Shown piece by piece: positions 1,833 to 52,030 of a DNA stretch of 64,000 nt. The notes beneath the pieces were generated by a model. The model was not told the origin of the DNA. It searched no databases and was given only the letters and a program-made list of their open reading frames with translations. Both the position numbers and the translations under genes were made by a program. Each line of letters begins with the position of its first letter. Within the stretch, counting starts at the first letter, position 1. Origin of the DNA: Cyanidioschyzon merolae. Lineage: Eukaryota. The DNA lies in the NCBI GenBank assembly GCA_000091205.1, contig AP006492.2. One strand, written 5' to 3'.

Positions 1833-2678
1833 ATGAAGCGTAGCCTAGCAGTGATTATTGTCGCAATTCTGCTGTTTGGGTACTCAGCGGTCGTACGGGC
1901 CGCGGTTGTCCGTCGCGCAGCCCCGGCACCTGCTGCATACATGCGAGGAACGGCCTCGGAACTGAAGTTCCGCAGCCAGGCACGTATACGTCTGCCGCCG
2001 CCGCCTCCGCCTCCGCCGAAGCCAACGCCGACGCCACCGCCCGCCGTTGGTGGTGCCGGTGGCGCAGGCGGGGCTGGTGGCGCTGTAGGTAATGGTAACT
2101 ATGGAGGAGCGGGTGGATATGGTGCTTTTGGCGGTGTCGGAGGTAATGGTGGTTTTGGCGGTGGCGGCGGGAACGCTGCCAATGGCGGAAATGCTGGCGA
2201 TGGAGGCACTGGCTTCTTCGGTGGTTCCGGAGGTGCAGGTGGGGACGGTGGATTTGGCAGCTTTGTTGGTAACGGCGGCTTTGGAGGAGACGGTGGAAAT
2301 GCTTCATATTCGGGCTTTGGCGGAACTGGTGGCAATGGAGGTGACGGAGGTGATGCGAGCAATGGAGGATATGGTGGTAATGGTGGGTATGGAGATGGCT
2401 ACGCATTTGGTGGCACCGGCGGTGATGGCGGTGTAGGTGGACCCTCTGGCAATGGTGCTGACGGTGGTGTTGGAGGCGAGGGTGATTTTGGCGGGTTCGG
2501 AGGCACTGGTGGCCCTGGCGGGTTCGGTGGCGCAGTTGCGAACGGTGGCTTTGGAGGCAATGGTGGATACGCATTTGAGGGGGGGAACGGAGGTAATGGT
2601 GGCGTGGGCGGCGGGGGAGGCCTTGCAGCAAACGGCGGCAGAGGAGGCAGCGGTGGCAATGCTAGCTCATTTTATTGA
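1833..2678 (+). CDS. Secreted glycine-rich protein. An N-terminal signal peptide is followed by a Pro-rich linker (PPPPPPPPKPTPTPPP) and then GGxGG / GGNGG repeats.
   Basis: The ORF starts MKRSLAVIIVAILLFGYSAVVRA, a hydrophobic signal-like segment, followed by a poly-Pro stretch and a long Gly-rich repetitive region. The antisense Pro-rich ORFs (1855..2631, 2099..2362, 2399..2659) are artefacts of the GGN repeat. Confidence 0.5.
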   Translation: MKRSLAVIIVAILLFGYSAVVRAAVVRRAAPAPAAYMRGTASELKFRSQARIRLPPPPPPPPKPTPTPPPAVGGAGGAGGAGGAVGNGNYGGAGGYGAFGGVGGNGGFGGGGGNAANGGNAGDGGTGFFGGSGGAGGDGGFGSFVGNGGFGGDGGNASYSGFGGTGGNGGDGGDASNGGYGGNGGYGDGYAFGGTGGDGGVGGPSGNGADGGVGGEGDFGGFGGTGGPGGFGGAVANGGFGGNGGYAFEGGNGGNGGVGGGGGLAANGGRGGSGGNASSFY

Positions 2679-4901: not shown

Positions 4902-5510
4902 CTATGATCCGCAGTTTGGATCGCAGGATGAATGGTTAGCGTGATCCGCAGTTTGGATCGCAGGATGAATGGTTAGCGTGATCCGCTGTCTAGGCCTCCG
5001 CAGCGGTGCCAGCGCCCAGGGCGGCATCACTTCCGCCGTGCCTGTAATCGTCAGTGAAACTATCGGTACCCCAGCTTGCTTTGCGACCCGAAACGGGCGC
5101 TGTTTGAAAGCACGGAGCATCCCGTCTTTCGAGCGCGTGCCCTCCGGAAAAAGCAACAGCGACACCCCGCGTTCCAGTCGCGAAACCATTTCTCGAAAGA
5201 CCCGCAGTTGATCCCGTCGACTATCCCGCTCAATCCCGATTTGACGAGCCATGCCCACCGCCCAGCCGATACTAGGGATCGCAAAAATGCTTCTTTTGGA
5301 GACAAACTTGAAAAACCGGCCTAGAAACGACACCGTGTAGATGTCCAGGTACGAATTGTGATTGCACACATAAAGCACAGTGGCATCAGGCGGAAGCAGA
5401 TTCTCCGTACCAACGGCACGCTGATGAATACCAGTGCTCAGCATGGACAGTCGCATGCAGAGCATCGCGATCCAGTCGTAAGCGCGCGCTCGGTATGGAT
5501 CACGGATCAT
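4902..5510 (-). CDS. 1-acyl-sn-glycerol-3-phosphate acyltransferase (PlsC/LPAAT family), apparently lacking the N-terminal membrane anchor
   Basis: The acyltransferase motif I is present as VCNHNSYLD (NHxxxxD) and motif III as FPEGTRS. The segment GTENLLPPDATVLYV upstream of the motif is typical of PlsC. The ORF starts exactly at the truncated end of Fanzor-like copy A. Its last roughly 25 codons are encoded by a 37-bp tandem duplication. Confidence 0.7.
   Translation of the reverse strand: MIRDPYRARAYDWIAMLCMRLSMLSTGIHQRAVGTENLLPPDATVLYVCNHNSYLDIYTVSFLGRFFKFVSKRSIFAIPSIGWAVGMARQIGIERDSRRDQLRVFREMVSRLERGVSLLLFPEGTRSKDGMLRAFKQRPFRVAKQAGVPIVSLTITGTAEVMPPWALAPLRRPRQRITLTIHPAIQTADHANHSSCDPNCGS
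4907..4990. repeat. Tandem duplication of a 37-bp unit 'atccgcagtttggatcgcaggatgaatggttagcgtg' (2 copies plus a partial third)
   Basis: The direct repeat is visible in the sequence. Its period is not a multiple of 3, and it forms the 3' end of the LPAAT ORF. Confidence 0.8.
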
Positions 5511-7469
5511 TCCATACGTTTCTTGCCGTTGGGAGTTGTACTCACTAATGCAAGGAGTCCATGAACTTTCGCCCTCCTTTCCATTTGCTCCTCCGTCAGC
5601 GGTCCGTACTGTGCTATATCCTCAGGACTCCGTTGGCATTTTTCCATCTCCACTCTCTGAAGTGTGCAACCAAGTTCATGGTGTGTATACGACGCTCGGA
5701 ACTCATCTACAGGTATTGTAACGAAACGCCGTGCGCACTCCCTGCATGTTCTTGTCGTTGGAGCTGGCGTAGTTCCTTTTTGGGTCTTCCAGCGCCCTGC
5801 CCCAAAAGCTACTACGAGCCTTAGACTCTCGTCCTCCTCCAAGGCGCTCAAGTGATTGGAAAAGATCGCGAATGCACGCTGCTTCCCACAGTACAAATTC
5901 ATTCGCAAACGAGCTCACCGAGGCTCGGTATACTCCTCCCACAGCGCATCCCAATGAGCAACGCGAACTTCCATGAATTCCCGAAAAGCTTCAAAGTCCG
6001 CGCCCTGGCTCGTCACCTCGCTCATAGCTTCCAGGTGATCCCTCATTCCTGCATTCCACGTCTCGATATTTTTCCTCGCATTCGTTATACGGGATTCTCG
6101 ATAGTATCTCGCTCTCGAGAACCTCAAAAGAAGCATATATTTCTGACGTATGTTGCCGTCGGTGCAATCTTCCGCACGCTTGGGTACAGCGATGGATATG
6201 ATATTCTTGTTCCAGGGGTTAAGGCCGACGACAAAGTCGTTCTCGTGGGGATTATACATCCAGTGGCCCGCCTTCTTGTTTCCGTGCTTCGGCAAGTGCG
6301 ATAACGTACACGGGATAGGACGAACTGCCTGCAACCGCTGATAGTCTACACATATGTATACCCCATCGTTGTCGATTGTCCCCGTGAATACCTTTTTTTC
6401 GCCGGTCTGGGACGCTTGAAATCGAAGATATTCTGCCAGTAGGAGTCCCGGTCTTCGCCGATGATTTCTTTGTTGCTCACACCGAGCGCTGGACTGATCT
6501 CCTTCATGAAGACGGAGAGGACTCTAGAGTCAATAGTAACAAAATGTGACTTGGACTCGCGTAAGCGAACGACAATGAAGCGCATCTGGAGAAGCGATTG
6601 AATGTCATCTCTCCAACGCTTCATTTTTTCCGTACTCAGCTCCATTTCGGCCTTGCGTTCGAGTTCTCGGTCCAAAAACATGAAGTAGGAGAGAATAAGG
6701 GGATAACATCTCTCTTCGTTTTTTCTCATATCTGACAATTTTTCTCTTGGGTTGACAAGCCCCAAGACCGAACGATGCTTTTGATGAGTCGCGCGAATTA
6801 CAGAAGCCCTATTTTTTCTAGAGCGTGATTTCCCCTTGTCGATGAATTCGATCTGCTGTTCATGCTGGCGATCGTCCTTCACACCGTCGATGACTGCCCA
6901 CATCCCTTCACGAAACAGGCCCGGGTACAGCGCAAAGACGGCGCGTGTCATGAAAAATTTGGGTATACGATCTTATTGTTCCTCACATTCGTGAGGAACC
7001 TCATTGCCCTGTATTCGTAGGTATCTGCGTCACCCCTGTATCGCGCACCGTAGAAGCGGGAGCTTGCGTAATTTTTCGGAGAGCATGGACTGTCTCATTT
7101 CTCCTCGATGTTTCGCAGGTGCCAAACATCAACTGGCTGACAAAGGTCATGTTGAAAACTTCTCCCGGAAACATCACTGTTTCGATGTGCATTGCGTTGC
7201 GGTATATCTCCCTCCGCAAATGCATCAGTCCCGAAAAAAGCGTTACAAACATAGCTTGAGCACGAATCGCCATCGTTTCTGAAGGCCTGTCGCAACGTTT
7301 CCTTGTATGGATCCTTAATATGCCCAAGAAGACAGAATTTCATCACCATTTCATCGATCAGTCGTCTTTCTTGCAACCTTTGACGAAGGGCCTCCCGTTT
7401 TTGCTTCTTCGCGTTAGCCTGTTCCTCTGCACTCGGCACTGTCCTTTGTTCTCTTCCGGCGGCCGGCAA
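5507..7469 (-). pseudogene. Decayed TnpB/Fanzor-like nuclease gene (copy A)
   Basis: Homology to copy B is spread over at least three reading frames. The frameshift positions differ from those in copy B, which argues for decay rather than introns. The C-terminal region carrying the RuvC-III motif and zinc-finger region is missing. Confidence 0.5.
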
Positions 7470-7644
7470 TACCGGTCATCCAGAACCCCATACCTCCAGT
7501 TGCATAAGTTTCGGTTTTTATATAAAACACTAGGGACGCTTCTGCTTTAAACGACGACAAATCAGTTAAATACTTTACCTTGAAGGTTGAAACACGATTG
7601 AAGTAAAACCTACACTTTGCTATCATTTGATCGCAAATACAACT
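5507..7644 (-). mobile_element. Fanzor/TnpB-like (OMEGA-family RuvC nuclease) element, copy A; 3'-truncated and frameshifted
   Basis: The fragmented ORFs 7095..7469, 7001..7327, 6346..6951, 5915..6334 and 5507..5908 are collinear and 55-75% identical in amino acids to the copy-B ORFs at 38399..40674. A RuvC-I-like motif FVVGLNPWNKNIISIAVP matches copy B's [18 protein letters not shown]. The upstream end shares 'ggttgaaacacg..gcaaatacaact' with copy B, with the boundary at about 7644. Homology stops abruptly at 5507, after KKRME, where copy B continues into the RuvC-III motif. The element is roughly 48% GC against roughly 60-65% in flanking genes. Confidence 0.55.
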
Positions 7645-7859
7645 GGCCCCGACACAGCTGTAGGCCAAAAAGTGGCCATTATCGCGTTTCTCTTCGCCGG
7701 CGAGACAGGTTGCGTGTTGTGACGGCCAGATATCGTGGTGCGCGTACGGGCCATATAATACAAAAAAAGAACGGAGTGTGGCCAATTACTTGCAACGAGG
7801 TAACGGTTCCTTTTCACATCTATTGCAGACCTTGAAAAGAGGAACCTTTTGCTCATGGT

Positions 7860-8340
7860 CTAACGATTACCTTCGAGGTGGAAGGTCCCACACACCGGAA
7901 GACGCTACCTGCTTTTGCTCCGCGTGACTCTGAGTGGTGGAGAATGTGACGCACCTGAGCGTCTCGTCCGAATCGCGTTTGGTTCTGGGACTAGGAGCGG
8001 ATGTGCTGCCTATGGGCGTCACCTTGGTCGCGGTGGACTCCTAGGATACCGCTTCGCGGTACCGCAGGCTGAAGGTCTGCATGTACAGCTTGGAGGCTCC
8101 CAGAAATGTAAATAGCCCTGATTCCGTTTCGCGTGAACCAAGCCTCTTCCGACGCCCTCAGTGGTATTGCGAAGCCGTTCTGTCACCGTGGTGCATTAGC
8201 ACCAGCGGTGTAGGTGCTATTCCGGGTGCTCAAGGAAGGTTAGGTGCACCGTTGAACGTGCGAAACAAGCAGTTCATTCGAGAGAAAGTAGGGGTGATGG
8301 AACGTGGAGAAAGAGTGCAGCATGAGGACGCATTCCCGAA
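7860..8340 (+). repeat. Interspersed repeat R1 (SINE-like), copy a
   Basis: The head 'ctaacgattaccttcgaggtggaaggtccc' and core 'ccgacgccctcagtggtattgcgaagccgttctgtc' match the other R1 copies. R1d, for example, reads 'ccgacgccctctgtggtatagaaaagccgtcctacgtc'. It lies about 215 bp beyond the upstream end of Fanzor-like copy A. Confidence 0.6.
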
Positions 8341-9217
8341 AGCCAATATCGATCAGGCAATCTGGGATATATGGTCAGTGGAGACGTTCTGTCGAACCAA
8401 AGAAAGCATAGCGCCGGAGGGAATTCCCTAATGGCTCTGGTGTTCGACGCATCGCCTTGGCAGATGCATATGCGCTGAAATCATCCCGCAGGAGGAAATT
8501 CCCTTATACTTCCGCTGGGCCGGTGCCCGCGGGCGGCAAACGTAGCACTTGCGCGTTTCCACTGCATGATTGACACGCAGTTACCGCCGTGGAGAGGCAC
8601 ACGTTAAGCTCGTTTGGAGCAACTGACCAGCTGCAGTCATATATACGTATCTCATCAACGGAGCGTCTTCAGAGACGTGAGCAAAGACGCGCAGGTCGTT
8701 TTGCGCTAAGCTTTAGAGGCTCGTGCGCGGTCTAAGATAGACGTCGACGCGCCGGTGTTGAGGAGAACGAAAACAGCGCCCTTGTGTGTGTAGTTGTCTG
8801 TCGAAAGACGAACAACTTCACTCCAGTAGAGCGTAAACGGGCGCCCCGGAGTCACGGATTTTGAAACTTGAGAAAACACTGGTGCGAAAGCACTCGTCTT
8901 TTCCACGGACTACACGCGTCACGGCGAGAGCGGGGCTCGTTGCTCATCAGTCGCGGCCGGGACGATTCTGAACCACGGAGACGTGAGTGCTACAGCCCAG
9001 TACACTGGATCAAGCGTTGAATGCACGTGCTCCTGGGGATATTGATAACGGCGCTTCTGATCGCCGCTGCGTTCTGGGTCGCATTGTCGATGGTGCGTCT
9101 GGAACGGCGCCTTGCGGAGCACGAGCAGCAGGCAACACAACGTTTATTGGAACCGCGTAAACCTGGTGAGCGCAGCGTGCGCGCGGAAACGAGCACTGCG
9201 CTCTCGTAGCAATACAT

Positions 9218-15046: not shown

Positions 15047-17329
15047 CTGCAGTCAAAAGCACGTCCAGCTCGGTGCGGTGAAATCTGTCGCTCCGGGACA
15101 AGTGTTGCGCTAGATTGGCCCGCTTGTGAGCGAAACGGCCAGTCGTCAATCGCGCAGATTGTCCACTATGGGTGTCAATGGGCAGTTACGTGGCGCGGTG
15201 CTGTCGAAGCCGAGACGCGATTATCTGGCGGTGCCAAACATAGCTCCTATGTCCGTTAGGATCATATAGTTCCATAAATGCACTTTCCGCGATGCGCTTG
15301 GATCATGGACGTGCCTCCGGGGCGGGGGCGTATCGCGCGTTCGCGCTGGTGCCCCTCGAGCGCTGGTTCCGTTCTGCGGTACGCAGCGAGGCATCTGAAC
15401 GCGAGTCCGATCGATGCGGAACTCGGACACGTTCGCTCTGTTCCCGCGACTTGGTTTGTTCTCCGAAAATTTTCTAGATGCATAGTCCTGAAATTTGATG
15501 CGCAGCGAAAATCTATTATGGACTCATATGCAGTTCTCAGATGCTCGAACGTATTTTCGGATTAGGTTCTGTTGACGTTCTGCGACTGCTGGCAAGCGAT
15601 GCGTGACCGGAATCGAGATGATTCGCGGCGCACTCGAGCAAGGATTCATGAAATAGCTAATATTGCTGTGCAATGCATACGTTTTGGCGTTTACCTCTCT
15701 CCCTTTCTTACGTTTAACATGCGCACTTCGCACATTCATCGACGTTTGGATCTTTCTCTTTCAAGGCCAGTCGCGGGCGCAACGAAGCGCGGCCATGGAT
15801 TGACGCAGACAGCTACTGAAAATCGTCTGTAAACGACTTGCTCTCCAGCTCATCAAGAGAATTTGCAGAATGTGTCATGTCCAATAGCAATCTCCATTCG
15901 AAACACATACCTTCATTTGGTACAGGTTATCTGCAACACCGCATTTGGCAGCTGCATGATGGCTCTCACGAGATACGCTTCAAGAGGTTCGCGTCGCTTT
16001 TCTTTGTATGCAAAGGAGTGCTGCGCTCGAAATTTGGACATCGCAACGATGCTCTTCGGTAAACAGACCGTCACCGATATGTTGGAATGAAGTACCGACA
16101 GACTGAAATTTTATGGTTTGTTCCCTAGGCTGTTTGTTCCTTCCAGCACTTGTTTCATCCTGGAGAACATTGTGTTTTACGAATCCTCTATTGAATGAAA
16201 CAGCAAGCAGTCGCTTGTGCAAGTCGCAGAGACAACGCAGATACCTGCTGCATGCGCGGAAACATTGCAAGGCATTGCATGGCGCCACGTGCACCAGTCA
16301 AAGGCACGTATCGACCGATCATAGGAGCGTTCACGAGCCACCGGGTGCTGGTCAGATGAGCGGAGGGTTTCGCGGAAATGCGGGAACACCCGCACACAGT
16401 CAAGCCACCGCTGCGAAGACGCACCGATGCAGTATACAAAGATAGAGAGAATGACAAACGAAGCATAGATAGGGGCGGGTGACTCTGCATGAAATGCGTT
16501 GACCACAAGCGGAAGCAGCTCAGTGGGGACGTTAACGCTGCCATCAAGATTCCGCCAATGCTGATAGCGGAACTGGTGGGAATGCAGTTACCAACGTATT
16601 CGAATATGGAGACTCGTATGCGAAAAACAAGGTACAGTGGCAGCGGAACCCTGCAAACACCAGTATTGGTGCTAGAGCGCAGAAACAAAACCTATATTGT
16701 GTACGCCCGACTCTGCGAACCTGCTCTATGTTAACCGAACACGGCAGTATCCAGAATCCCTGAATGCGCTGCTGCGGTATGCAAGCCAATGAAACAGAAA
16801 ATGTCCAACGAGTTTCTAGGGTAAATGAATGACTACCCGCTGACGCCTTCCAGCCTTTTTCGACCGGCCGCCTGCTGTCAGCTTCAGTTTATCCAGGTAT
16901 ACACTGAGCTCGAGAGGCCGACCGAAAAACCTGCATCGCGTCAGTTTCAGAGGTCTCGTCTTCAGCACCGCACATCATCTGATACTGATTGCACCTTTCA
17001 AAGTCTCGGTTCATGAGCTCCTTGCGTTTTTACTGCCGCCGGCAGAATTCACCAGCGCAAGGACTCGTCGAACTCGTGCCCTCGGTGCCATTTCCCGCCC
17101 TGCCAGCTCTCTGTGCTTTTCTGTCGCCAAAACGGTCCGCTGGCTTCTCTCCATCTCGAACTTCAAAAGTGTACACCCTGGTTCATTCCTTATTCATGAA
17201 AATGAATGCACCCCTTTAAGCACTCGGGTGAGGAATTTCGCAGCAGGAGAGGCACTCGCGGAAGACAGACAAAATGTGCCCTGGCGTCACCGTGTCTTGA
17301 ACGCCTCGGCGATTCGTACAATGGACCGA

Positions 17330-18150
17330 TCAACGCGTTTCACCATAGAAACCACTCCTCTTTATAGCGTTGAATCTCGGAGAGGACGGAAGAGTGAAAA
17401 GCAGCTGCACCCCGATAGAATCCGGAAAAGCCCAAACGCAAAGTGAATGCTGAAATACTACGTTGTACAGTAGAAGAACGTCGCCAGAGGTCCGGGGAAA
17501 AGTCTTTAACGAGTCGACAGCATTGCTGCTGTTCTACGAGACTTCTTTACAAGCGAAACTGAGGCCACCAAATGGATCCACTGCTGCTAGAATAGAAGAT
17601 GATAACCTGTATCTCTTCGAGTTCGGTCATAGACACAACGGGCTCCCTCTCTGCAAATACCCATGGACGTTCCGACCGTATCCTCTGAAGCAAGTCTCAT
17701 ACACTGAAAAAAATAATCGACGTTTCTCTGCATCATAGCGATCGCGACGTTTCAGGAACGCTGTCGCTGCGATTTCTGTGGAAGACAGTCGTGCGTGAAC
17801 GCGGACTTTGTTGTGACTGTATCCCAGTGTTTTGAGTACCACGTGAACAAGCTGTTGAGAAACAGAGACACTTGCTGTGTCTACGATCGTTGGTTTTACT
17901 TTCCATATGCTGATCAACGGTTCGTTTTCTATCATTGACGATGAGCAGTCTTTCATAATATTTTTTGCGCAAAGCGCATCTACATGTGCCTTTCAGTAAT
18001 CCTCAACCATCTAAGCACTATGATATGACTCACCTGAACAAGAAATACAGTCCTCCTTGCACAGTTTCGCACAGAATACATCCTAGAGAGATTTCGTCTA
18101 TGATCTGTACGGTACATTGCATTGTGGAGTCGATCGCCTGCTATCCACCA
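17330..18150 (+). repeat. Dispersed repeat family R2, copy 2
   Basis: It is homologous to 1-745 (see copy 1) and carries an internal insertion of about 70 bp relative to copy 1. It sits in the low-GC block 15.4-18.2 kb. Confidence 0.5.
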
Positions 18151-19249: not shown

Positions 19250-20580
19250 TAGCTTTGTAGGGCGCAGAATTCTGGAAGCTGCGATCGCGACCCAGATCGG
19301 ATGGAGAACCATAACCGGATACGAACGACCTCTTTTCCTAAACAGTACATCTCGTGGCCGTATCCGGCTGACGCAGGGGGTGGCTTTGATTTTGCGAGCG
19401 CTCATACAAGTAGTGCATGCGCAGCACTGGTTGTCGACAGATACCAACAGCGATGCGTCGCACTGTTGTGCAGCGTGCTGCCCCGGTATCCGCGTCATTG
19501 CAGATACCGCTGAACCCGGGAGTGGAGTGACCGGTACGTTATGGTGAGGATCGCGCTTACCCGGAACACAAAGAATCCTGCAATTCATGACAAGGGGCGG
19601 CGTCTGTGCGTACATATCCATGTCCAAAGCGAGAGCACTTGCCTCCAAGCCATAATTTTGTGTCCAGAAATCGCATCCGTGGTCTACAGCAGACGCGGAT
19701 AAGCGCAAGCGTCGAGACGCTGGCTTGACTCTATACCGGAACTACAACCTCGCATACACATGCAAGTACTGGTGGGAGGCGCTGGAATTCCCGGGACTTG
19801 CTCGAGGTACCCAGTGGCTCGCGAAAATCCGCGTTGATGGCTTCTGGCTACCAGCACGGGCTCTAAGCCGTATAGGGACACTGGAATCGCACTGGGAATC
19901 ACACTGTCCCTGCTATCGAGACGAAATCCCCGAGACGCTGACATATTTAGGCTTACAGTGCCCGCGCTGGAAGCAGGAGCGCAGCGAGCTCCTTGCAGGA
20001 CAGCAGCAGCTGGACATCACCGTGATAGGCGAAGGCCGGACAATCACTTTGAGTGCAGCACTGGCAACTGATGGTCCGCTAACCGAGCCTCAACGCTCAT
20101 TCGTGGCCAATAAACTCACATGCTACCTTCTAGGCAGCAGGTCCAGCGAAGCGGATGCGTACACGGGCACAGTGCGCTTTCTGCGCCTACCTTCTGTGGT
20201 GGGTGTCAAGCACAAATCCGCATTTCCAACCGACAACAACGCATTCCATGCATGATCACCAAGGAGGGAGGCGACTCCCTCGATTTATCCTAACAGCCAA
20301 GTTTCTCCAGCGTGTTGTGCAGCGAAGGCAAGCCTGCATCCGCAGACTGTCCGAGCACACACTGACGACGAGACCCGATTCTACGTCGGGTGAACCACGC
20401 CTTGAGCCGACGCCCTCTGGGGTATAGAAAAGCCGTTCTGTCTCTATGATGCATCTGTACCAAAGGTAAAGACGCCATTGCGGACTATCTTGGCAGGCAT
20501 TAGGTGTGCGATAGAACGTTTGAGACGACCAGTATATCCGAGAAAAAGTATAGGTAATGTAACTTGGACGCATTGGGTAG
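19250..20580 (+). mobile_element. 5'-truncated non-LTR (LINE-like) retrotransposon 3' fragment, terminating in the R1 tail module
   Basis: ORF 19725..20255 contains HWESHCPCYRDEIPETLTYLGLQCPRWKQER, which resembles the C-terminal zf-RVT (C-x2-C ... ET..H....CP) motif of non-LTR ORF2 proteins. An upstream ORF contains a degenerate YPADAGGG that is possibly derived from the YADD box. The 3' 350 bp carry the R1 core 'ccttgagccgacgccctctggggtatagaaaagccgttctgtc' and the R1 tail 'gaccagtatatccgagaaaaagtataggtaatgtaac'. Confidence 0.35.
20230..20580 (+). repeat. R1 repeat, copy b (LINE-3' variant with an alternative head)
   Basis: Its core and tail are shared with R1d/e/f. The head 'cctaacagccaagtttctccagcgtg' is shared only with copy c ('ttctaactgccaagtgtctccaaggc'). 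Confidence 0.55.
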
Positions 20581-20782
20581 TATGATGAACGATTTCTCGA
20601 TGACCGTTAACCATTCCGCATTCTTCGATCCCTGATCCTTGTGAATGGTTTGTCATCGGAGAACAAAAACCATCCTCGTCAAGTGCACGGCGATTGATTG
20701 TATACAGCATTGCTGGGTGCTTTTCTGCAGCCGTTTGCGGGCAGTAGTTATGTGCTTCGTTTTCACATCGTGATTCTTTATC

Positions 20783-21382: not shown

Positions 21383-22372
21383 GATAGCGGGCAACGCCAA
21401 CGAATGCCTCGTTCGATACGAGGCACCCGCTCTCTGGCTTGCCGAGAGAGCCTCCTCTATGCTGCGATGACGTTGTGAACCTGTCGTGTTGACGGAGCAG
21501 ACACAGTCCTGTCACTGGCTGGCGGATACGTGCGCTCGGAACGGAACACGACCAGAAAAACAAACCCGTGGCGAAGCGTACACAGAGGTGGCAGTGTTTT
21601 GCGGCAAGCGCCGTGCATTCGCTCTCGAGCCACGACATCGAGTCCAGTAACTGAATAGATTCTAGAGTGTGCGATTTTGGCGCTAGTGCAATTGCTCTGG
21701 AGCATCGACATCGAGTCCATGAGTTGAGCATCTTCCAGACTATGCAAGTTTCGTGCTAGCTAGTGCGGGCGCTGAACGAGAATCGGAGTCCGCGCTATGC
21801 CGGCATACGAGCCCACGAGCGGGGAAGGCGGTCGACTCCGCGAACACTCTACATGAGCGGTGCCGCACCCGTTCCTGGGAATAGATGCGGAACGACGCGG
21901 TGGTGTCAATACGGTCGACGCGGACTCGGAATGCACGGAATCGGCCTCGTTGTATTCCCTATGAACGAATTCGTGCTTTATCCAAAAATCGACGCCTCGG
22001 GAAGCGCCGTTGCTATGAGGCTACCAGCCGGTAGCACCGGCACAAGCCGGCCACCGGATTTGTGTGCTGTTTGGGGTCAGCGACGGCGGATCCGTCCATG
22101 CGCTTCTTGGCGACGCGCGCTGGAGTTAGGTCCGATGGCGCATGGAGACGGACACCGCGCTGGACGCCCATGGACGGCATGGAAAGCACTTGCCTCGCCA
22201 GGATTTTCGCGAGGGTTCCAGTGGCGCAGTGCTCGCTCGAAACGCCCCTTATAGACACAGATTTGCCCTGTACTCTCGACAGAGCGTTTCGACTCGCATG
22301 TCGTAGTCGGTGCGCGCAGCGGCTCCACGGGCAGGCCACTGTGTGCGCTCCGCGAGCGAACCTCGCACCTGA

Positions 22373-29789: not shown

Positions 29790-30700
29790 GTGTCCAAGAT
29801 CGCACGTGTCCAGCTCTGGATTCTCGCGTGGGCCTCGAAGGTAACGTCAACTCCGGCGAACAGGTTCCGTTTCCATCTGAAAAAGTCCCTTTTCGATGCT
29901 GTGGGTATATTGATGCACGCTTACGCGCTGCTCGTGTCCGTCCGAGGTATCCGGCGATACCGGAAGCGTGCCGTTCGCGACCACTGGGCCCAGCCTCGAC
30001 GTCTTTTGGAGCCTCATGATGCGTGCTCCATGACAGTACGGCTGGATCGGTTCACGTATCGTGTCGTGTACGAAGGACCTCCGGTCCGATTTTTCCCGGT
30101 CGTTGCGCACTCATGCCGCTGGGTTGTCCCCAAGCGTACAGAGCCTCGTGAATCGCGCCGGGCGTGCGTCCATCGAGCGATAGCCCCGCACCAAGTTGTT
30201 AGAGGCGGCGCTAACCGCACACGCACCAGCACATCGACTAGCTGCTCGTCGGGAGGCATTTCATCGAGCAGGACGAGCACGCAGGTTCACGGATTCAGCA
30301 GCACATCGACTAGCTGCTAGTCGGGAGGCATTTCATCGAGCAGGACGAGCACGCAGGTTCACGGATTCAGCAGCACATCGACTAGCTGCTAGTCGGGAGG
30401 CATTTCATCGAGCAGGACGAGCATGCAGGTTCACGGATTCGTTCACCTCGTCACTCGCGTAAGCCGAGCAAAGGTCCGCGTATCGAAACGTCAACACACG
30501 CGATACATGGTGGTGAAGGAGAAACGCGCTCCCCAGAATTCTTTCTAACTGCCAAGTGTCTCCAAGGCAACGTGGCGCGAGTGCAGGTCAGTGTACGCAG
30601 GCTGTCGGAGCATAAATCGATAACGATGAATACCGGTCCCGCATGGAATGAATCAAGTCGCATGCTGATGCCCTTCGCGGCATAGCAAAGCCGTTCTGCC
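29790..30700 (+). mobile_element. Second 5'-truncated LINE-like 3' fragment. It comprises a degenerate ORF, a 72-bp x3 tandem array and the R1 tail module (copy c).
   Basis: ORF 29790..30320 (KIARVQLWILAWASKV...DHWAQPRRLLEPHDACSM) aligns weakly with the 19725..20255 ORF (AKIRVDGFWLPARALS...SHWESHCPCYRDE). The 3' part, about 30490-30700, carries the R1 core '...gcatagcaaagccgttctgcctccgtggtgca' in the same order as copy b. Confidence 0.3.
30228..30440. repeat. Tandem repeat of about 2.9 copies of a 72-bp (24-codon) unit
   Basis: The unit is 'agcacatcgactagctgctcgtcgggaggcatttcatcgagcaggacgagcacgcaggttcacggattcagc'. It encodes AAHRLAASREAFHRAGRARRFTDS in frame. Confidence 0.8.
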
Positions 30701-31092
30701 TCCGTGGTGCACCTGCGCCAGCGCCACAGGCGCTATGGAGGGTGCTTATGAAAGACTCGACCCACCGTGGAACGTTCGACACGACCGTTTTCTCCAGACG
30801 GGTGCTTGGTAAATGCAACTTGGGGGTAGCGTCAAGCACGAGCAACGCTTTATCCAATCTCTATATTCTTTCGTGCCTTCGCAGGCATCTCCAGTCTGTG
30901 TAAAAAACCCCTCTGTCCATCGAGAGAAATCATCGACGCCAGCGCATGATGCCGCTGCGCGCGCGCTGCACCGCACCGCACGGGACCATCGCCAGTCCAT
31001 GCATTTCGTCTGAGATAGCCAGCGGCGATTCCCGTTCCGGAACGTGTAACGTGATTTGTTCAGTGTGAGACAAATACAGCTTCGTACGCAGC

Positions 31093-35100: not shown

Positions 35101-35444
35101 TTCCCCAATCTACAGGATACGTTTCTTCTGTTGAATTCCTGTAAGAAAAACAAACAAAAGCGGAAAAGCGTGCACTGATAAGAGCATTATGCAAGTCACT
35201 ACGCTTCCCCTAACGCTAGGCTCCGAACACGACCGCGACGGTGTATTCGCCTCGGTGGTCTTCGCTCTGACCCCAATCCATGGAAGCGAGCCGAATGCAT
35301 GTACATCGAGACGCAGCGCGTTCACGTGGTCAGCATATCCAGAGAAGCAAACCTGATGTGCGTAGACAGCTGAGGAGGCGTCGCTGCATCGGCTGCTGGG
35401 GCGCAGATTTTGCCCATTGTTGCAGCGCGGACAAGTGTTCCGAA

Positions 35445-36028
35445 TTCTCGAAAATTTACCTTCTAGGTGGAAGGTCTCGCGAGCCGGACGAGCCTGCCGG
35501 GCATACGCCCTGTGCGCCTCTGCAGCGACCGATGCTGTAGGGAGATCTCCGCTGCCCCTCGGCAACGTAATCAATCTGGGGCTCGCAGCGAGTATGCTGC
35601 GTTTCCGCGTCGCGCAGGTCGCAGAGGACTCCGAGCATATCGCTTCGCGCTATCGCAGGCAATACGTCTGTATGCGCATCTTGCAGGCTCCCTGAATGAC
35701 AATGAATCCCGAATCCATATCGTGCAGAACACGCCTCGAGCCGACGCCCTCTGTGGTATAGAAAAGCCGTCCTACGTCCGTGATGCATCCGTACCAAAGG
35801 TAAAGACGCCACTGCGGACTATCAGGGCAGGCATTAGGTGTCCGATAGAACGTAGGAAACGACCAGAATATCCGAGAAAAAGTATAGGTAATGTAACATG
35901 GAAGTAGGGCGTTTGAAGGATACTTCACCTCGCACTAAAAAAACACAAAAAAAAAGTAAGAAAAGAAAAATGCGCGTGATCGGAGAACGCTGGCACAAGT
36001 ACACCTTTTGTCCATGAAAAAAAAATCG
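35445..36028 (+). repeat. R1 repeat, copy d (most complete copy, with an A-rich tail)
   Basis: Head 'ttctcgaaaatttaccttctaggtggaaggtctcgcgagccggacgag'. Core 'cctcgagccgacgccctctgtggtatagaaaagccgtcctacgtccgtgatgcatccgtaccaaagg'. Tail 'gaccagaatatccgagaaaaagtataggtaatgtaac...aaaaaaacacaaaaaaaaagtaagaaaagaaaaatgcgc...gtccatgaaaaaaaaatcgg'. It ends 408 bp upstream of the bZIP ATG. Confidence 0.6.
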
Positions 36029-38151: not shown

Positions 38152-40825
38152 TCCATTGAGGTCCCTACGCTTTACTTAGAGCTTTTCGTTCGCTTTTAAG
38201 CCGAGACGGCAGGTTGCGCAACGTCATCGAGTTGTAGACGCGCACGAATAGCGAGTGCTTATTTCTCGACACGATGAAACTGGATTCGGAAAATAGATTC
38301 ATGAACTAAAGAGTGAACTGATTCCCGATGGAGGCCGAACGCCGTTCGAAAGTCGAACGACGGCAGTGCACCGTAGTGGCGAGAAGGCCGCCCTAGACTT
38401 AACGACTCCAACTGGCGTACTGACGCTTCCTAGGCTTTCTGGACCGGCCACCCACTACTGATTCCAACTTCTTCTCATATAAATCAACTTTGAGAGGTTG
38501 TCCAATAAAGTTCTCTCGTGTCCGCTCTGGAGGTCTTTTCTCCAGCACCGCGCATCTCCTGATATTGATAGCGGCGTTGAAGTCTCGGTTAACGAACTCC
38601 ATACGCTTCTTGCCATCATTGGTTGTACATACTAATGCAATGAGTCCACGAACTTTTGCCTTCCGTTCCATTTGCTCTCCCGTCAGCGGTCCGTACTTTG
38701 CAATTTCCTCAGGACTCCTCTGGCACTTTTCCATCTCCAGGCTCTGGAGTGTGCACCCCAGTTCATGATGTGTATAAAATGTTCGAAACTCATGGATCGG
38801 TATTGTGACAAAACGCCGTGCACACTCCTTGTACGTTCTTGTCGTCGGAGCTGGCAGAGTTCCTTTTTGGGTGTTCCATCGCCCTGCTCCGTACGCTACT
38901 ACAAGCCTCTGTCTTTCATCCTTCTTCGAGGCGCTCAACTCATTGAAAAAATTCGCGAACGCCCGCTACCTCCCACCATATAGATTCGTACGCAGACGAG
39001 CCCACCGGGGCTCTGTATACTCCTCCCACAGCGCCTCCCAATGGGCAACAAGAACTTCCATGAAATTCCGAAAAGCTGTAAAGTCCGCTCCTCGGCTCGT
39101 CACCTCGCTCATAGCTTCAAGGTGATCCTTCATTCCTGCGTTCCACGTAACGATTTTCTTCCTTGCATTCATTATACCGGATTCTCGGTAGTATCTTGCT
39201 CTGGAGAACCTCCAAAGGCGCATGTCTTTCTGACGTAATTTGCCGTCAGTACCATATTCCGCACGCTTCGGTGCTGTGATGGTTATGATATTCGTGTTCC
39301 CAGGGTCTGCGCCGACGACAAAGTCGTTATCTTGGACTCTCTCCGTCGCAGGACCCGCCTCCTTCTTTTCTTCATGTTTCGCCGCGCCAACGACAAGGTC
39401 GTTATCCCGCACCTCCTGCATTGCAGGACCCGCCTTCTTCTCATCTTCATCCTTCGTGACGGGCGCAGCCAAAGGCGGACCAGCACGATCTTTCTACAAC
39501 CGCCGATAGTGTACACACAAGGCTACTCCATCGGTTTCGATCAACCCAGTGAACCACTTTTGCTCGCTCATTTTGAGACGTTTGAAATTGAAGATATTCT
39601 TCCAGTACGTTTCCCGGTTTTCATCGGAGAACTCCTCCCTGTTACCATTGAACTCCGGACTGATCCCCTTCATGATGCCGTAAAGGACTCTGGAGTCGGT
39701 ACTCACGAAATGTGACTTGATGTTGCACATTGGAACGACGTTGAAGCGCTTCCCCATTGGGACAGCCTTCCGTCTCTCCCACTCTTCATTTTTTTTCCCC
39801 ACTCAGCTTCATCTCTGCTTTGCGCTCGAGTTCTCGGTCCATGAACACGAAATACCGTACGACGAGGCGATCGTATCTTTCCTTATCTTTTTTCATGTCT
39901 GATATCTTGTCTGTTGGATTCGCCAACCCAGTACCGCACGATGCTCTTGAATAGCCGCACGGATTACAGAAGCTTCATTCGTGCTCTCGTTTGACGCCTT
40001 CTCGTCGACAAATTCGACCTCATCTTCACGCTTGCGATCTTTCACGATGTCGTTGATAATCGCCCATTTCCCATGGCGAGAGATGCCCTGGTACAGCGCA
40101 AACACGGCGCGTATCATGAAACGTTCGGGGTTCACTGTCAAATGGTTCTTCAGATTCGTGAAGTACTTCATTGCCCCGTCTGTGTAAATATCCCCGTCAC
40201 CCTTGTATCGAGTACCCTCGAGGCTGTAAAAGGGATGTTTTTCGTGGAGAGCATGCACTAGCTCATTTTGCCTCCTCGTTTCCCCTGTACCAAGCATCAG
40301 GTAACGAATAAAGTCTTATCGAAAAACTCGTCCGGAATCTCGACCGTTTCCGTGTGCGTCACGTCTCCGTACATCTCCCTCGCCAAATGAATCAATCCTG
40401 ACGACACCTCGACAACACGCTTGGAGTACGAGTCGACACGTTTTGCTGATACCCTCTCGCAACTTTTCCCTCTAGGGATCCTTGATATGTCCAAGACGAA
40501 AAGGTTTTCACCATAATATCGTCGTGCTGTCGTCTTTCCTGCAGCTTCTGACGTTGGACCTCTCCGTTTTGCCTCTTCGTCTTGTATTGTGGCTCCGGGC
40601 TTGGTACTTTTGTTCGTTTTTTTTCTGGCAGCCGGCGACACCTGTCTTCCAGGATCCTTCATTTCCATGTCCATAGCTTTCCTTTGTTATTTTTTTGAAG
40701 AAGAGCGCACATGAAACGCGTTTGCTGTACACCGCGGGAAAGCACTTGAGTACACGCATTTGAGGGTTGAAACACGGTTGCACTGACAGACTATACGCTG
40801 CTAGGGCTTTAATGCAAATACAACT
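38152..40825 (-). mobile_element. Fanzor/TnpB-like (OMEGA-family RuvC nuclease) element, copy B; the more complete copy
   Basis: The ORF series 40297..40674, 39893..40297, 39494..39802, 38966..39472 and 38399..38938 reconstructs a roughly 700-aa protein. A RuvC-I-like motif reads [18 protein letters not shown]. The C-terminus has a TnpB-like Cys-containing helper region (EFRTFYTHHELGC...EKCQ) and a RuvC-III-like motif FVNRDFNAAINIRRC. Its upstream boundary at about 40825 is defined by homology to copy A ending after 'gcaaatacaact'. The low-GC 3' flank 38152-38398 presumably holds the right end of the element. Confidence 0.6.
38399..40674 (-). pseudogene. TnpB/Fanzor-like RuvC nuclease gene (copy B), interrupted by at least three frameshifts and an internal 20-codon tandem duplication
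   Basis: See the mobile-element entry. The frameshift sites differ from those of copy A. A duplicated peptide [20 protein letters not shown] / [21 protein letters not shown] lies immediately before RuvC-I. Confidence 0.55.
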
Positions 40826-41033
40826 CGTACGTTATAGCAATACGCTCATATTAAGGATCGCGTTTCCCAGTTACGGCAAGATGCGCTTTGCGTCTCATGC
40901 ATGCCAGATATGGAGATGCGCGTCTTGACTGCGCTCTAAAATAAAGAGCGGATAGGAACCTCTAAATACCAACTATATAACAATTTCTGGCCCCGCCTGC
41001 GATAAACGTTGAAAAAGGGAAAAGCTTACGGTA

Positions 41034-41640
41034 TTCTCGAAAGTATACCTTTTAGGTGCAAGGTCCCGCGAGCCGGACGATTCTGCCAGGGTTGTGCCTC
41101 ATGGTCGCCGCAGTGCTTCGTGCTGTAGTAAGATCTGAGCAGTTCGTCCGAAACGCAGTTGATTCTGGTACTCGTAGCGGGTATGCTGCACGTGGGCGTC
41201 GCTCTGGTCGCAGTGGACTCCTCGAATATCGTTTCGCGCTGCCACCGGCACTACGTCCGTCTCTACTGTTTCCACGCTCCCGGAATAATAATGTACTCCA
41301 GACCACGTGTCGGATGCATCATAATTCGATCCGACGCCCTCAGAAGCATGGAAAACCCGCCCTGACTTCGTGCTGCATCTGCCGCAGCGGTCTGACCGCA
41401 GACGCGGGTGCCCCAGACAGGCAAGACCCCCGATAGAACGTAAAAGAACGATCAGTATTTTCGAAAGCAAGTCTGAATGATAGACCTTGGTACACCAGCA
41501 TGACGAACGCTTTGTTTCGATTACCAGTACGCATCCCGCAATCTGGGATCCTTCGTCAATGGAACCGGTTTATCAAGAGTAGAGAAGATCACAAGCAGCG
41601 TGGCCGCCGCCTGCCTGACACAGCGGCTACACGGCCTACA
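41034..41640 (+). repeat. R1 repeat, copy e
   Basis: Head 'ttctcgaaagtataccttttaggtgcaaggtcccgcgagccggacgattctgccaggg'. Core 'ccgacgccctcagaagcatggaaaacccgccctgac'. Its extended 3' part, 'gcatcccgcaatctgggatcc', is shared with copy g ('gcatcccgcagtctaggatcc'). It lies about 210 bp beyond the upstream end of Fanzor-like copy B, separated by a spacer homologous to that of copy A. Confidence 0.55.
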
Positions 41641-45079: not shown

Positions 45080-45690
45080 AGCCCTGTATGCCCAGCGACA
45101 CGCTGATCGATGCTCTTGTCATCAACAGAGCGACTATAGAAAAGACCGGGGATATGCGATTTCATGCCTGGTATCAGCAAATGGAAAAGCGTTCATCGAT
45201 CCAGAGCCTATATCCGAGTCCCATGTACGCGTCAATCAATCGCCGGCTTCGCGTACCGCGTTGCACCCGAGCGCTAGCATCTTGCGTGCGTTGGGGTGCG
45301 CGCGCCGGCACGCACCTCTCGATGCGTGCCGGCGCATTCGGGCGGGCGATGCTGCGAGTAACGCCTCTGCTGCTGCCGAGCATGCAACAGGCGATGCGTC
45401 CTCGAGCCGACGCCCTCTGTATGGTACGGCAACGCCGTTCTGTCTCCGTGCAGGGACCGCACCGGCGCTATAGGCGCTATTGCGGTCGCCGCTTTCGGCA
45501 GGCACTAGGCACACACGATAGGACGTATGAGATGACCAGAATATCCGAGATGAAGGATAGGTAATGTAACGTGGGAGTAGGGGATTCGGTGGATACTTGA
45601 CCGCGCACTGAAAAAATAACACAAAAAAGTAGGAATAGAAAAATACGCATTATCGGAGAACGCTGGCCTAAGTAAACGTTTTGTCAATGA
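45080..45690 (+). repeat. R1 repeat, copy f (head partly degenerate)
   Basis: Core 'cctcgagccgacgccctctgtatggtacggcaacgccgttctgtctccgtgcaggg'. Tail 'gaccagaatatccgagatgaaggataggtaatgtaacgtgggagtagggg...gcgcactgaaaaaataacacaaaaaagtaggaatagaaaaatacgc...gtcaatgaaagaaaaactgg'. Confidence 0.55.
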
Positions 45691-46761
45691 AAGAAAAACT
45701 GGCAACACGTATGATGCAGAATGACACGGTGGGCGTGCTTGCCCCGATGGTATCTCGCGTTTGGCGTCGAGCCCTGGCGTGCGTCTGTGCGTGCCACGCG
45801 CGTCACGTAAGCGATACATGATGCTGGTGTGTGCCTCTGCCCACGGGACGCTCCCGTGTCGAACGGCGGGCCGCCTTCACGAAGCGTCTGCGCGGAGCCA
45901 ACACCCAGGTGCCTCCAGAAGGGTACGCAGAGACCAGTTGACCTGAGGCAGCGCTTGCGCCAGTACGGACGCGTTTCTGGTGCATGACCGCAGCGCTACC
46001 CCTATCGGATACTTGTCGTTGGTGTTGGTCGGCACAGCGAGCCGTACGAGTGTGCGTTCCGGCGCCTGTCGCGCTCAAGAGAACCCTGTATGGATAGCGC
46101 CAAGCGTGCGATACCCGGTTCCGAGGCCAGCTTCCATGACGCCGTATAGCCGTCCCGCCTCTCCGTCAGGCAACAGCAGCAGCGCACCCGGCTGCACAAC
46201 AAGTATCTACGATAGGCTCTGCATTCGTGAGGTCGATGGATCGCTCGAACCCCTATATCCCAGATAATGCCTTTTCCATACGTCGTGCTGTACATCCATC
46301 TATGGACAAGAAGTGTACTCGATTCCGCACCTGCCTGCGGAAAGCGCCGCCAGCACCAGCAGCTCGCGCGCCCTTGTTATCATGGTGAAAGTTCAATGAA
46401 ACGTTCCACGGCATCCGCCAAGCAAAGTCGTTCTCAGCATGACGCAAGACGTGCACCAAGCTGCACCAGCAAAAATTACCGCTCATGCTTGCCTGTGGAC
46501 GTCTCATCTTGGTGTCGCGCTGGATCATGATACCGGTTACCTGGCGCGCGAGATGCGCCAGTGCCACACAGCGGCGCGCGTGTGGCCAGCACGACGCCCC
46601 GCTCCGCCTCCCTGCCCTGAACGTATCGTGTGTCGAGGGGCAGGCATCGCTGCGTACTAGCACTGGTACCAGGTGCGAGCAGTCCGGTGTGACTTCGCTT
46701 TCCAGGCGTACGGGTGTTGTGTCTGTGACGATACGCACGGTGGTTTGCAAAAAATCGCAAA

Positions 46762-50545: not shown

Positions 50546-51174
50546 ACAAGGAGTGCCCGATGTCGCTGCTCAAGGAACGTGTCGATGACGCCCTATGCAA
50601 ATACACGCGGGTACATTGGACACGATTTCGCGTGCGCCGCTCTTCAAACATACACTCTTGGGAAAAACCTTTTTCACGCAGGCGCCGCTGCTTGGTAACC
50701 TATCGCGCAGCAGTGATCCAGCGTGTCTCGACCTGACACCTTCATTCATGAACCCGCGCTTCATACCAAGCAGCAGAGCATGGAGCCAGAATCTCTGTTA
50801 TCCGACGCTGTCTGCATAGAGGAGTGCTCGCATGCAACCTGCTGGCGCATGTGGATACGCGTTCTTCACAGCTTTCTGCCCTTGGACTAGTCTACGGGCG
50901 TGCGCGCTCACTTTCCCCGAAAGTCGATAGAGCAATCACTCGACGGCACCAAGCGTCGTCATTCTTCGCGGGAAACGTCGTCTTCGCTTCGATGGTTGTC
51001 GACAACAGTCGCGCATCCAGGGGATACTGGTACCATGCATCAGTCGCATGCAATCAGTGAACACACTGAACGAGATACCAGAAACAAAACGAGAGAAACC
51101 AAATTCTAACTAGCGTCTAGATAAGAATGTCGTTCAAACTTCACGGTAAGCATTGACAGGGAGACGTTTTCCGC

Positions 51175-52030
51175 GTATTCGAGTGTTACGCTTCTGGGGG
51201 CAGGAGGCCCCGCGAACCGGACGAGTCTACCGGGCTTGCGCTCCGTGTGCCTCTGCATTGCCGGGCTCAGGAGCAAGACGCAAGGAACTCGTTCGCCACG
51301 CAGTTCATTCTGGGACTAGGAGCGGTTGGGCTGTCTCTGGGCGTCGACCTGGTCACGGAAGTCTCCAAGCATATCGCTCCACGCTGCCGCAAGCTGAAGA
51401 GCTGGCTGCGCAACTCGCACGCTCCCAGCAGGACGAAGAGGCCGGATTCCTTGTTCAATGAACCACGCCTCGAGCCGACACCCCCAGTGGTGTGGCAAAG
51501 CCGTTCTGACTGGGTGCTCCATTCGCACCGGCGGTACAGACGTTACGGTGGGTGCTCACTGGATGCGCTCAGTCCACGACAGATCGTATCGAGCGACCAG
51601 TCCATCCGAGAGCAAGGATCGGAGATGGAACTTGAAGGTACACTGAAGAATAATGGACGCTTTTCTTAATCTCAATATGCATCCCGCAGTCTAGGATCCA
51701 CGCTCCAAGTAAACGTTCTGGATGAACAAACGCAATCCACAAGGGTCGTCTGCGCCGCTGTGCCGCTCCGGGAACGCGGCAGCGATCCATGCAATCGCCC
51801 AGCTCGCTTGCAACGCATGGCGATCGTCCCGGAGGCGCGGCCGGAGCGGCAGCTCAAGGCAACGAAGGGCGAGGCGAGGCAGCGCGGTGCGGCAGGCGCC
51901 ACCGGCGGCGATCGCATCGATCACATGCACCGCGCACTGAAAAACCCCCCAAAAAGAAAGGCAAAATGCGCATCATCGGAGAACGCTGGCCTGAGTGAAC
52001 GTTTTGTCCATGAAAAAGAAAATCGATCGC
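51175..52030 (+). repeat. R1 repeat, copy g (with a duplicated or extended 3' region)
   Basis: Head 'gtattcgagtgttacgcttctgggggcaggaggccccgcgaaccggacgagtctaccgggc'. Core 'cctcgagccgacacccccagtggtgtggcaaagccgttctgac'. Tail 'gcgcactgaaaaaccccccaaaaagaaaggcaaaatgcgcatcatcggagaacgctggcctgagtgaacgttttgtccatgaaaaagaaaatcgatcgc'. The tail overlaps the first codons of the SAS-6 ORF. Confidence 0.55.

Follow-up and report, generated by a model that had tools for sequence, protein, structure and literature searches.

In this study, we analysed a window of 64,000 nucleotides, part of chromosome 10 of the red alga Cyanidioschyzon merolae strain 10D, in which a Fanzor1 gene, a spacer and a repeat (R1) stand side by side at two loci. 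We conclude that both blocks are very probably members of a dispersed, old and mostly dead transposable element (TE) family of C. merolae, CMe-1A, whose composite of gene, spacer and repeat moved as a unit. On the basis of the organism, the size, the copy structure and the published description, the Fanzor–spacer–R1 block is CMe-1A and R1 is TE-N2_CMe. CMe-1A was reported as a Fanzor1 element of ~3 kb, with ~150 copies that are roughly 80% identical to the consensus, and its 5′ 635 bp are 95% identical to the whole of TE-N2_CMe, which has ~70 copies (Bao & Jurka 2013, Mob DNA 4:12, PMC3627910). A first-pass annotation of the window had proposed, as one of two readings, a mobile unit of ~3.3 kb with R1-like sequence at one end, and this agrees with the CMe-1A/TE-N2_CMe relation and with the census of loci described below. 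The composite structure was already published in 2013. Secondary to it, we add that its modules can be separated at a shared breakpoint, that a deletion variant was propagated, that the 3′ hairpin is universal and that the gene bears a signature of selection.

Extent of the repeated unit

Four long open reading frames (ORFs) of the window were exact matches to 10D proteins, BAM80176 (CMJ030C), BAM80178 (bZIP), BAM80180 and BAM80182. The duplicated composite that the first-pass annotation had seen at two loci was borne out by colinear self-BLAST and by shuffle tests. Self-BLAST aligned 5511-6248 with 38598-39335 at 82.5% identity, and 6317-7411 with 39482-40579 at 70.5%. With looser scoring, colinear matches went on through the spacer and R1 to 8393/41574 at a near-constant offset of ~33,180, and included the following pairs.

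7580-7644 and 40760-40825
7868-7902 and 41046-41080
7955-8209 and 41135-41391
8352-8382 and 41533-41563

The significance of homology was assessed by dinucleotide-shuffle tests and expressed as z scores. Between copy 1 and copy 2, z was 5.6 for the 213-nt spacer alone, 11.4 for the interval from the ATG to R1 and 46.7 for R1. No homology between the two copies was found in the 500 bp past the outer end of R1 (z = 0.1) or in the 500 bp past the 3′ side of Fanzor (z = -0.9). Because the scores of the spacer and R1 are high and those of the flanks are near zero, the repeated unit is larger than the nuclease gene, as had been claimed, and its limits are sharp.

To delimit the unit, we built profiles of R1 (587 positions), the spacer or leader (470), the 3′ end (214) and a further module, X. 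By these family profiles, copy 2 is a full-length unit of 3,257 bp (38335-41591), and copy 1 spans 5511-8410, having lost the last ~370 bp at its 3′ end. The two copies are made up as follows.

40932..41591 (-): copy 2, TE-N2_CMe-like 5′ module, R1e (41009-41591) plus the first 77 nt of the spacer
40675..40931 (-): copy 2, proximal 5′ leader of the Fanzor core, the 'spacer' from which the first-pass annotation had quoted motifs
38399..40674 (-): copy 2, Fanzor1 pseudogene, ATG at 40674 and stop at 38399, by three-frame translation
38335..38398 (-): copy 2, 3′ tail with terminal hairpin CCGTCGTTCGA-CTT-TCGAACGGCG, then TTCGG at the unit end
7755..8410 (-): copy 1, TE-N2_CMe-like 5′ module, R1a (7834-8410) plus the first ~77 nt of the leader
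7506..7754 (-): copy 1, proximal 5′ leader by the spacer profile, with the ATG-equivalent at 7505-7503
5511..7505 (-): copy 1, Fanzor1 pseudogene, by three-frame translation and tblastn

R1e matched positions 4-586 of the R1 profile (E = 5.4e-163) and has a degenerate T-run as its outer end, and R1a matched positions 6-584 (E = 9.8e-145). The module boundary of copy 2 falls at position 78 of the spacer profile, and homology ceases past 41591. The spacer profile matched both window spacers, at 7830-7375 in copy 1 (E = 7e-106) and at 41008-40542 in copy 2 (profile positions 1-470, E = 6.6e-135); these two E-values are partly circular, since the profile was seeded with the two window spacers and nine other loci. 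Many non-seed loci matched it equally strongly, from position 1 or ~78, which supports the spacer independently of the seeds. The 3′-end profile matched copy 2 at 38500-38297 (E = 1.3e-54).

The first-pass annotation had rested on quoted strings and on two R1 copies. The strings are all present, and their positions were 2 to 15 nt off. Both R1 copies are real; their limits by profile are 7834-8405 and 41009-41588, not 7860-8340 and 41034-41640. The strings lie as follows.

gcaaatacaact: 7633 and 40814
gccagatatcgtggtgcgcgt: 7725-7745 (formerly given as 7716-7736)
gccagatatggagatgcgcgt: 40903-40923 (formerly given as 40888-40908)

Identity and decay of the Fanzor1 gene

The gene is a Fanzor1, encoding a TnpB-like RuvC nuclease. 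Direct searches gave little: Pfam found no Fanzor-related family in the ORF fragments of the window, phmmer found no match in PDB for a reconstructed 758-aa protein, and a shallow family profile searched against PDB returned only a spurious match to angiogenin. In a large protein collection we found 39 relatives, all from Joint Genome Institute (JGI) metagenomes, the best of which was P0058 (752 aa). An exhaustive search of 1.8 billion representatives identified 1,232 relatives, many of them of 600-700 aa at 30-40% identity. A profile made from P0058 and 40 distant relatives matched only Fanzor1 chains in PDB.

Parasitella 9cf0: E = 6.7e-22
Spizellomyces 8gkh: E = 5.6e-12
Guillardia 9cer: E = 1.5e-5

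The distant relatives mended the structural model as well as the profile. AlphaFold2 (AF2) with a 14-sequence alignment gave a predicted local distance difference test score (pLDDT) of 32, which is unusable; with the distant-relative alignment, the model of P0058 reached a pLDDT of 79.7 and a predicted TM-score (pTM) of 0.76. The top seven Foldseek matches of this model were all Fanzor1 (SpuFz, PpFz, GtFz), with E-values between 1e-16 and 4e-14 and a target TM of at most 0.72; Cas12 proteins ranked next. These matches assign the model to the Fanzor/TnpB fold (WED-REC-RuvC-NUC). Among the catalytic residues of the family, D484 and E656 are invariant and D725 nearly so, and the family motifs GxDPG, DEFRT and NRDxNAAxN align to the same RuvC motifs in 9cf0 and 8gkh. 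Taken together, the PDB profile matches, the RuvC motifs and the fold matches show that the label 'Fanzor-like' of the first-pass annotation was correct, and specifically that the gene is Fanzor1. The C-terminal zinc ribbon CxxC…CxxC was not seen in the family consensus between RuvC-II and RuvC-III; PF07282 matched 7 of the 41 distant relatives, and P0058 only at E = 0.23.

Both window copies are pseudogenes, and so is almost every copy of the family. Among 62 element entries (about 33 independent loci), an intact ORF of >700 aa was present only at the P0058 locus. The copy 2 ORF has several in-frame stops and one frameshift. Its RuvC motifs GADPG, HEFRT and NRDFNAAINI are still legible, all three D-E-D residues are retained, the Fanzor1 profile matches its ORF fragments, and tblastn gave 62% identity to P0058 over aa 34-752. 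The copy 1 ORF has several frameshifts and stops, its RuvC-I Asp is replaced (GLNPW, N for the first D), and it ends at ~aa 720, without RuvC-III and the 3′ tail. Copy 1 is older than copy 2.

A 75-bp tandem duplication lies inside the copy 2 ORF (39309-39375 and 39384-39450). Its unit encodes an acidic stretch, KHEExKEAGPAxQEVxDNDxVV, just ahead of RuvC-I. P0058 has four such acidic units at aa ~380-470, and its AF2 model is disordered at residues 374-470.

We compared divergence among the copies and found that the nuclease was under purifying selection while the family diversified. This follows from the lower pairwise divergence of the ORF (20%) than of R1 and the leader (32-33%), and from third codon positions diverging most (0.163, 0.141 and 0.233 at positions 1, 2 and 3). 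Past purifying selection fits the remark of Bao and Jurka on long-lasting coding capacity. When strains are compared, the adjoining genes diverge 2 to 5 times more slowly than the copy 2 remnant, which is consistent with neutral decay of that remnant now.

Two side observations concern the Fanzor sequence of the window. Between locus L001 (7992-8195) and the window (38297-38500), the Fanzor 3′ tail differs by 14 mismatches in 204 nt (93%), in a region where the strains are ~99% identical, suggesting ectopic gene conversion of this tail from another copy. A more diverged Fanzor-like remnant was also found at 33024-33794 (-), matching aa 475-732 of P0058 in tblastn (28%, E = 7.6e-17). The distant-family profile missed it, and it may belong to an older or second Fanzor lineage.

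A modular family and the origin of the composite

To examine the wider family, we scanned metagenome contigs with the family alignment and obtained 80 loci, oriented on the Fanzor gene. These are ~99% identical to the window where checked. Many of the 80 are one locus recovered from several samples, and clustering reduced them to roughly 39 independent Fanzor loci. Copy 2 was present in every strain fetched, and no orthologue of copy 1 was found among the census loci.

The spacer aligned across loci from the inner end of R1 to the ATG. It is a conserved part of the element, and not the residual homology for which it had first been taken. At 11 independent loci (class I), R1, the full leader and Fanzor follow one another with an identical junction, and R1 ends 400-420 bp upstream of Fanzor aa 1. 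Class I comprises the two window copies and L015, L022, L033, L034, L037, L044, L052, L057 and L085. At six more loci, R1 is fused to internal Fanzor positions (aa ~35, 121, 146 or 499) and the 3′ tail is kept. The junction at aa ~35 is identical at L019, L053 and L074, which have three different flanks, indicating that this deletion variant was itself propagated.

The leader from ~position 78 onward was kept in all classes of loci, and the upstream contexts other than direct R1 are all joined near this position. At four loci, an inverted R1 abuts the core exactly by its T-run. Class II elements carry upstream the conserved module X of at least 1 kb. Positions 193-300 of module X, ~720 bp upstream of the core, repeat the final ~100 nt of the Fanzor element, so that class II elements carry the 3′-tail sequence twice in direct orientation. 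The 3′-tail copies in module X are as follows.

L018: 370-484
L056: 294-401
L051: 3875-3968

These data demonstrate that R1 and the Fanzor core are separable, and that the composite is one form of a modular family.

Besides R1a and R1e, the window holds five R1 copies that stand alone.

35420..36027 (-): R1d, solo TE-N2-like, R1 profile 3-586, E = 5.5e-162, outer run of 9 T
51157..52025 (-): R1g, solo, with a ~200-bp insertion near the outer end
20124..20665 (-): R1b, degenerate solo, R1 profile 7-343 and 473-549
30620..30923 (-): R1c, partial solo, R1 profile 12-310
45399..45699 (-): R1f, partial solo, R1 profile 4-273

In the window and at other loci, solo R1 copies stop at the R1 inner end or ~70-75 nt into the leader. 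R1d has no leader or Fanzor sequence behind it and no spacer-profile match downstream, and R1g may extend ~55-60 nt below 51157 into leader-like sequence (a weak match, E = 0.23). No solo R1 copy was followed by a Fanzor 3′ tail or hairpin; the proposal that solo R1 copies are simple internal deletions of the composite is therefore not supported. True internal-deletion derivatives with both ends do exist, as a set distinct from solo R1.

All seven R1 copies of the window, with R1g taken as 51157-51720, lie on one strand, and several are 0.4-1 kb from, and divergent to, plus-strand ORF starts (bZIP, OBG GTPase, ABC transporter). This pattern could be chance (about 1.6%), an insertion bias or a retention bias.

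A second repeat, R2, was found at 203-717 and 17614-18122 of the window (70% identity), and also in L030, L032, L043, L057, L069 and L076. The R2 copy at 17.6 kb lies just 5′, in the Fanzor sense, of the two pieces below, and together they look like another deletion derivative with a different 5′ module.

16921-17187 (-): Fanzor C-terminal fragment, aa 664-752, 40% identity
16839-16884 (-): piece of the 3′ tail

We also examined how the element begins and ends. At its 5′ end, R1 has 7-10 consecutive T and then CATTGACAAAACGTTTAC; the reading frame extends to within ~60 nt of the 3′ end. A terminal 3′ hairpin was present in all 32 independent copies (32/32), with a median of -11.8 kcal/mol and a mean z of -2.4 (below -2 in 20/32 copies), against z = +0.18 for the flank control. 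It occurs as two sequence variants that pair in different registers. Neither a hairpin at the left end of the core (mean z = -0.38) nor one across the R1/leader junction (mean z = -0.59) was significant. Conservation extends over the 3′ ~200 nt, a region that is mostly coding as well; RNAalifold found one long-range stem in it with almost no covariation. Scans of the whole window with Rfam and for tRNAs gave no match. Fanzor systems that have been characterised express their ωRNA from the end of the transposon, and the sequence directly 3′ of that end serves as the guide (PMC10432273). The boundary hairpin fits this layout, and the family may likewise produce an ωRNA.

A full unit of ~3.26 kb begins, in the gene sense, with the ~660-bp TE-N2_CMe module and its T-run. 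A conserved leader of ~260 bp, a Fanzor1 gene of ~760-790 codons for the TnpB-like RuvC nuclease and a ~60-nt tail ending in the hairpin follow. The composite was very probably copied round the genome as one piece. Since the unit encodes no transposase, a separate enzyme probably moved it in trans. By analogy with characterised systems, Fanzor would not be the transposing protein and may act as an RNA-guided nuclease, with a guide RNA made from the 3′ end of the element.

Several points weigh against this main reading or qualify it. The genome-wide census was made by proxy, on metagenome contigs and not on the 10D genome itself. The fixed distance between Fanzor and R1 that the first-pass annotation had raised holds at the 11 class I loci, and roughly half of the sampled Fanzor copies have no R1 directly upstream: 13 loci have module X there, 4 an inverted R1 and about 5 other flanks. 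With so many copies behind other modules, the composite is only one of several forms. The neighbour-joining tree of the core is star-like with the classes interspersed, so a single origin of the composite is not demonstrated, and the loci L007 and L009 differ exactly at the R1 T-run. The target-site duplications (TSDs) suggested for the flanks were sought by eye in six flank pairs of class I units, and none was consistent. A search for presence/absence polymorphism among near-identical loci found none, and no empty site was seen. No transposase was found, so that we infer mobility as a unit from recurrence and not from observation. Finally, the identity with CMe-1A and TE-N2_CMe is based on the organism, the size, the copy structure and the published description, and not on alignment to the Repbase consensus.

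In an alternative that we consider unlikely, a Fanzor core of ~2.6 kb was the real mobile unit and landed repeatedly and independently beside the termini of different repeats, namely TE-N2 (in either orientation), module X and R2. RNA-guided homing could also have copied the core there, and the association with R1 would then reflect target choice and not co-transposition. Four different upstream contexts sharing one breakpoint near leader position 78 argue for it, as do the interspersed classes of the core tree and the inverted R1 that, at four loci, meets the breakpoint exactly by its T-run. In three of six contexts, all three independent, the core is preceded by GCAT, and the target-adjacent motif (TAM) of SpuFz1 is CATA (PMC10432273). 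The pair L007 and L009 can be counted here as well. L007 (4401) and L009 (1659) are the same locus on one side of the R1 T-run (98.5%); beyond it, L009 has an inverted Fanzor core and L007 a host 2-oxoglutarate (2OG)-oxygenase gene. Either the locus is structurally polymorphic, or an assembly join lies right at the element end.

However, 11 loci have one and the same class I junction together with 77 nt of shared leader, and a deletion variant recurs with its own junction at three loci; descent from composites is the simpler account of both. R1, the leader and the core also co-vary in age: copy 1 exceeds all other copies in divergence, whether in R1, in the leader or in the ORF, and the distances of R1 and the core are correlated (Mantel test, r = 0.58, p = 0.027). 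The core tree is unresolved and thus not positively incongruent, and class I units are flanked on the 3′ side by unique sequence and not by TE-N2. We therefore rate transposition of the whole unit as the better reading than repeated targeted juxtaposition.

A related proposal is that the hairpin-ended core of ~2.6 kb is a discrete unit joined at one fixed 5′ breakpoint to at least four repeat ends (TE-N2 direct, TE-N2 inverted, module X and R2). We give this a modest outside chance. If true, it would mean RNA-guided or target-specific homing, or read-through chimeras made by a copy-and-paste transposase of HUH type, and it would offer the first mechanistic handle on an unclassified Fanzor1 transposon.

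It is very improbable that the element is a retroposon read from the opposite strand, with the outer end of R1 as its poly(A), R1 as a shared 3′ end resembling those of long and short interspersed elements (LINE/SINE), and the partial copies as 5′ truncations. In the Fanzor sense, R1 has 7-10 T as its outer terminus, a run that varies in length and reads as A on the opposite strand; solo R1 copies share this end and vary at the other, and copy 1 lacks the end that would be 5′ on the other strand; Bao and Jurka drew an analogy to HAL1/L1 (PMC3627910). Yet no reverse transcriptase is present, no TSDs were found, and R1 has no tRNA or Rfam match. Many internal deletions keep both ends, unlike a pattern of 5′ truncation, the other terminus has a conserved hairpin, and a Fanzor gene once under purifying selection would be antisense to the RNA intermediate.

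A local segmental duplication within the chromosome arm, the other option left by the first-pass annotation, is refuted: the blocks are 33 kb apart, colinear and in the same orientation at a near-constant offset, but similarity stops at the unit ends in unrelated flanks, divergence between the copies reaches 26% in the ORF and 37-40% in R1 and the leader, their mutual distance equals or exceeds that of either to copies elsewhere, and the same block recurs at 11 or more unlinked loci.

For annotation, it would be appropriate to mask both blocks, along with the five remaining R1 copies, as CMe-1A and TE-N2_CMe repeats, and not to take them as genes or as a duplication. How Fanzor1 elements without a transposase move, and what the nuclease does for them, has been the wider question since 2013. 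Because it combines many old copies, alternative 5′ modules, a constant hairpin 3′ end and signs of long purifying selection, this family is a reasonable system in which to test ωRNA production, TAM and target choice, and transposition chemistry.

The sequence around the elements has further features. The Fanzor homology of copy 1 ends one base from the ATG of an acyltransferase ORF at 4902-5510 (-) (PF01553, E = 1.6e-24), and the upstream region of this gene is therefore a Fanzor remnant. No protein of exactly that sequence was present in the protein collection searched. The product of the ORF at 1833-2678 (+) looks secreted and is extremely rich in glycine, with a proline-rich stretch followed by GGxGG repeats. 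The other repeats of the window are listed below.

24004-24551: tandem repeat, 114-bp unit, about 4.8 copies
30224-30440: tandem repeat, 72-bp unit, 3 copies
21613-21758: tandem repeat, 73-bp unit, 2 copies
55785-55992: GT-rich microsatellite-like array
4905-4986: exact repeat of 37-bp period at the 3′ end of the acyltransferase ORF

Comparison with known elements

Helitrons begin with 5′-TC and end with CTRR-3′, have a hairpin 10-12 nt before the 3′ end, insert between A and T, and encode a Rep/helicase. A Helitron was rejected here: the 3′ terminus is GGCGTT(C/T)GG and not CTRR, the 5′ end is a T-run and not TC, and the unit has no Rep gene. A structure like that of long terminal repeat (LTR) elements was rejected as well, since both window copies and most loci have no R1 after the 3′ tail; at one locus, assembled as L036, L041 and L079, R1 begins 212 nt after Fanzor aa 752.

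We compared the family with transposons that use HUH or Rep proteins, such as Helitrons and Replitrons. These also lack terminal inverted repeats (TIRs), usually make no TSD, and form a hairpin close to their 3′ end; their 5′ ends are fuzzy or chimeric, and they have non-autonomous partners. In the C. merolae family, no TIRs joining the unit ends were found in the four units searched. The absence of TIRs and TSDs, the 3′ hairpin and the variable 5′ ends give the family its resemblance to HUH-type elements (IS200/IS605, Helitron, Replitron). It differs from the Helitrons and Replitrons in that no Rep gene was seen in the CMe-1A-type unit and no Helitron termini are present. Some Helitrons carry Fanzor genes, and Replitrons were not detected in red algae (PMC10288648).

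The TnpB-only elements of IS200/IS605 type (IS1341-like) and OMEGA systems likewise encode only a TnpB-type nuclease, without TIRs or TSD. With these systems, the family shares a hairpin at the right end, where a guide RNA would be expected from the 3′ end with its scaffold ending at the boundary. IS200/IS605 elements have subterminal hairpins at both ends and a Y1 TnpA, and they insert 3′ of a fixed short motif without TSD. In the C. merolae family, the nuclease is a eukaryotic Fanzor1, the left-end hairpin is not significant, no TnpA was found, and no fixed target tetranucleotide was shown.

MCi-2, a Fanzor1 family of Mucor circinelloides, has a constant 3′ region and variable 5′ regions that define its subfamilies (PMC3627910). 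It resembles the C. merolae family in this constant Fanzor 3′ part and variable 5′ part, in the lack of TIRs and in its 'fuzzy' 5′ ends. However, MCi-2 copies are 99% identical with TSDs of 11-12 bp, and part of a Crypton transposase is found in one of the subfamilies, whereas the C. merolae copies are old, with no detectable TSD and no transposase fragment.

CMe-1A itself was described without TIRs and with undetermined TSDs (PMC3627910). We found no difference from it in anything tested. The organism is the same, the unit is ~3 kb long (3,257 bp here), and Fanzor1 is the only encoded protein. The copies are strongly diverged, TIRs are absent and TSDs are not resolvable, and the 5′ ~635-660 bp are shared with a short solo repeat. 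Two points are new relative to the published account of CMe-1A: some copies have module X, an inverted R1 or R2 upstream, and the 3′ hairpin is conserved in every copy.

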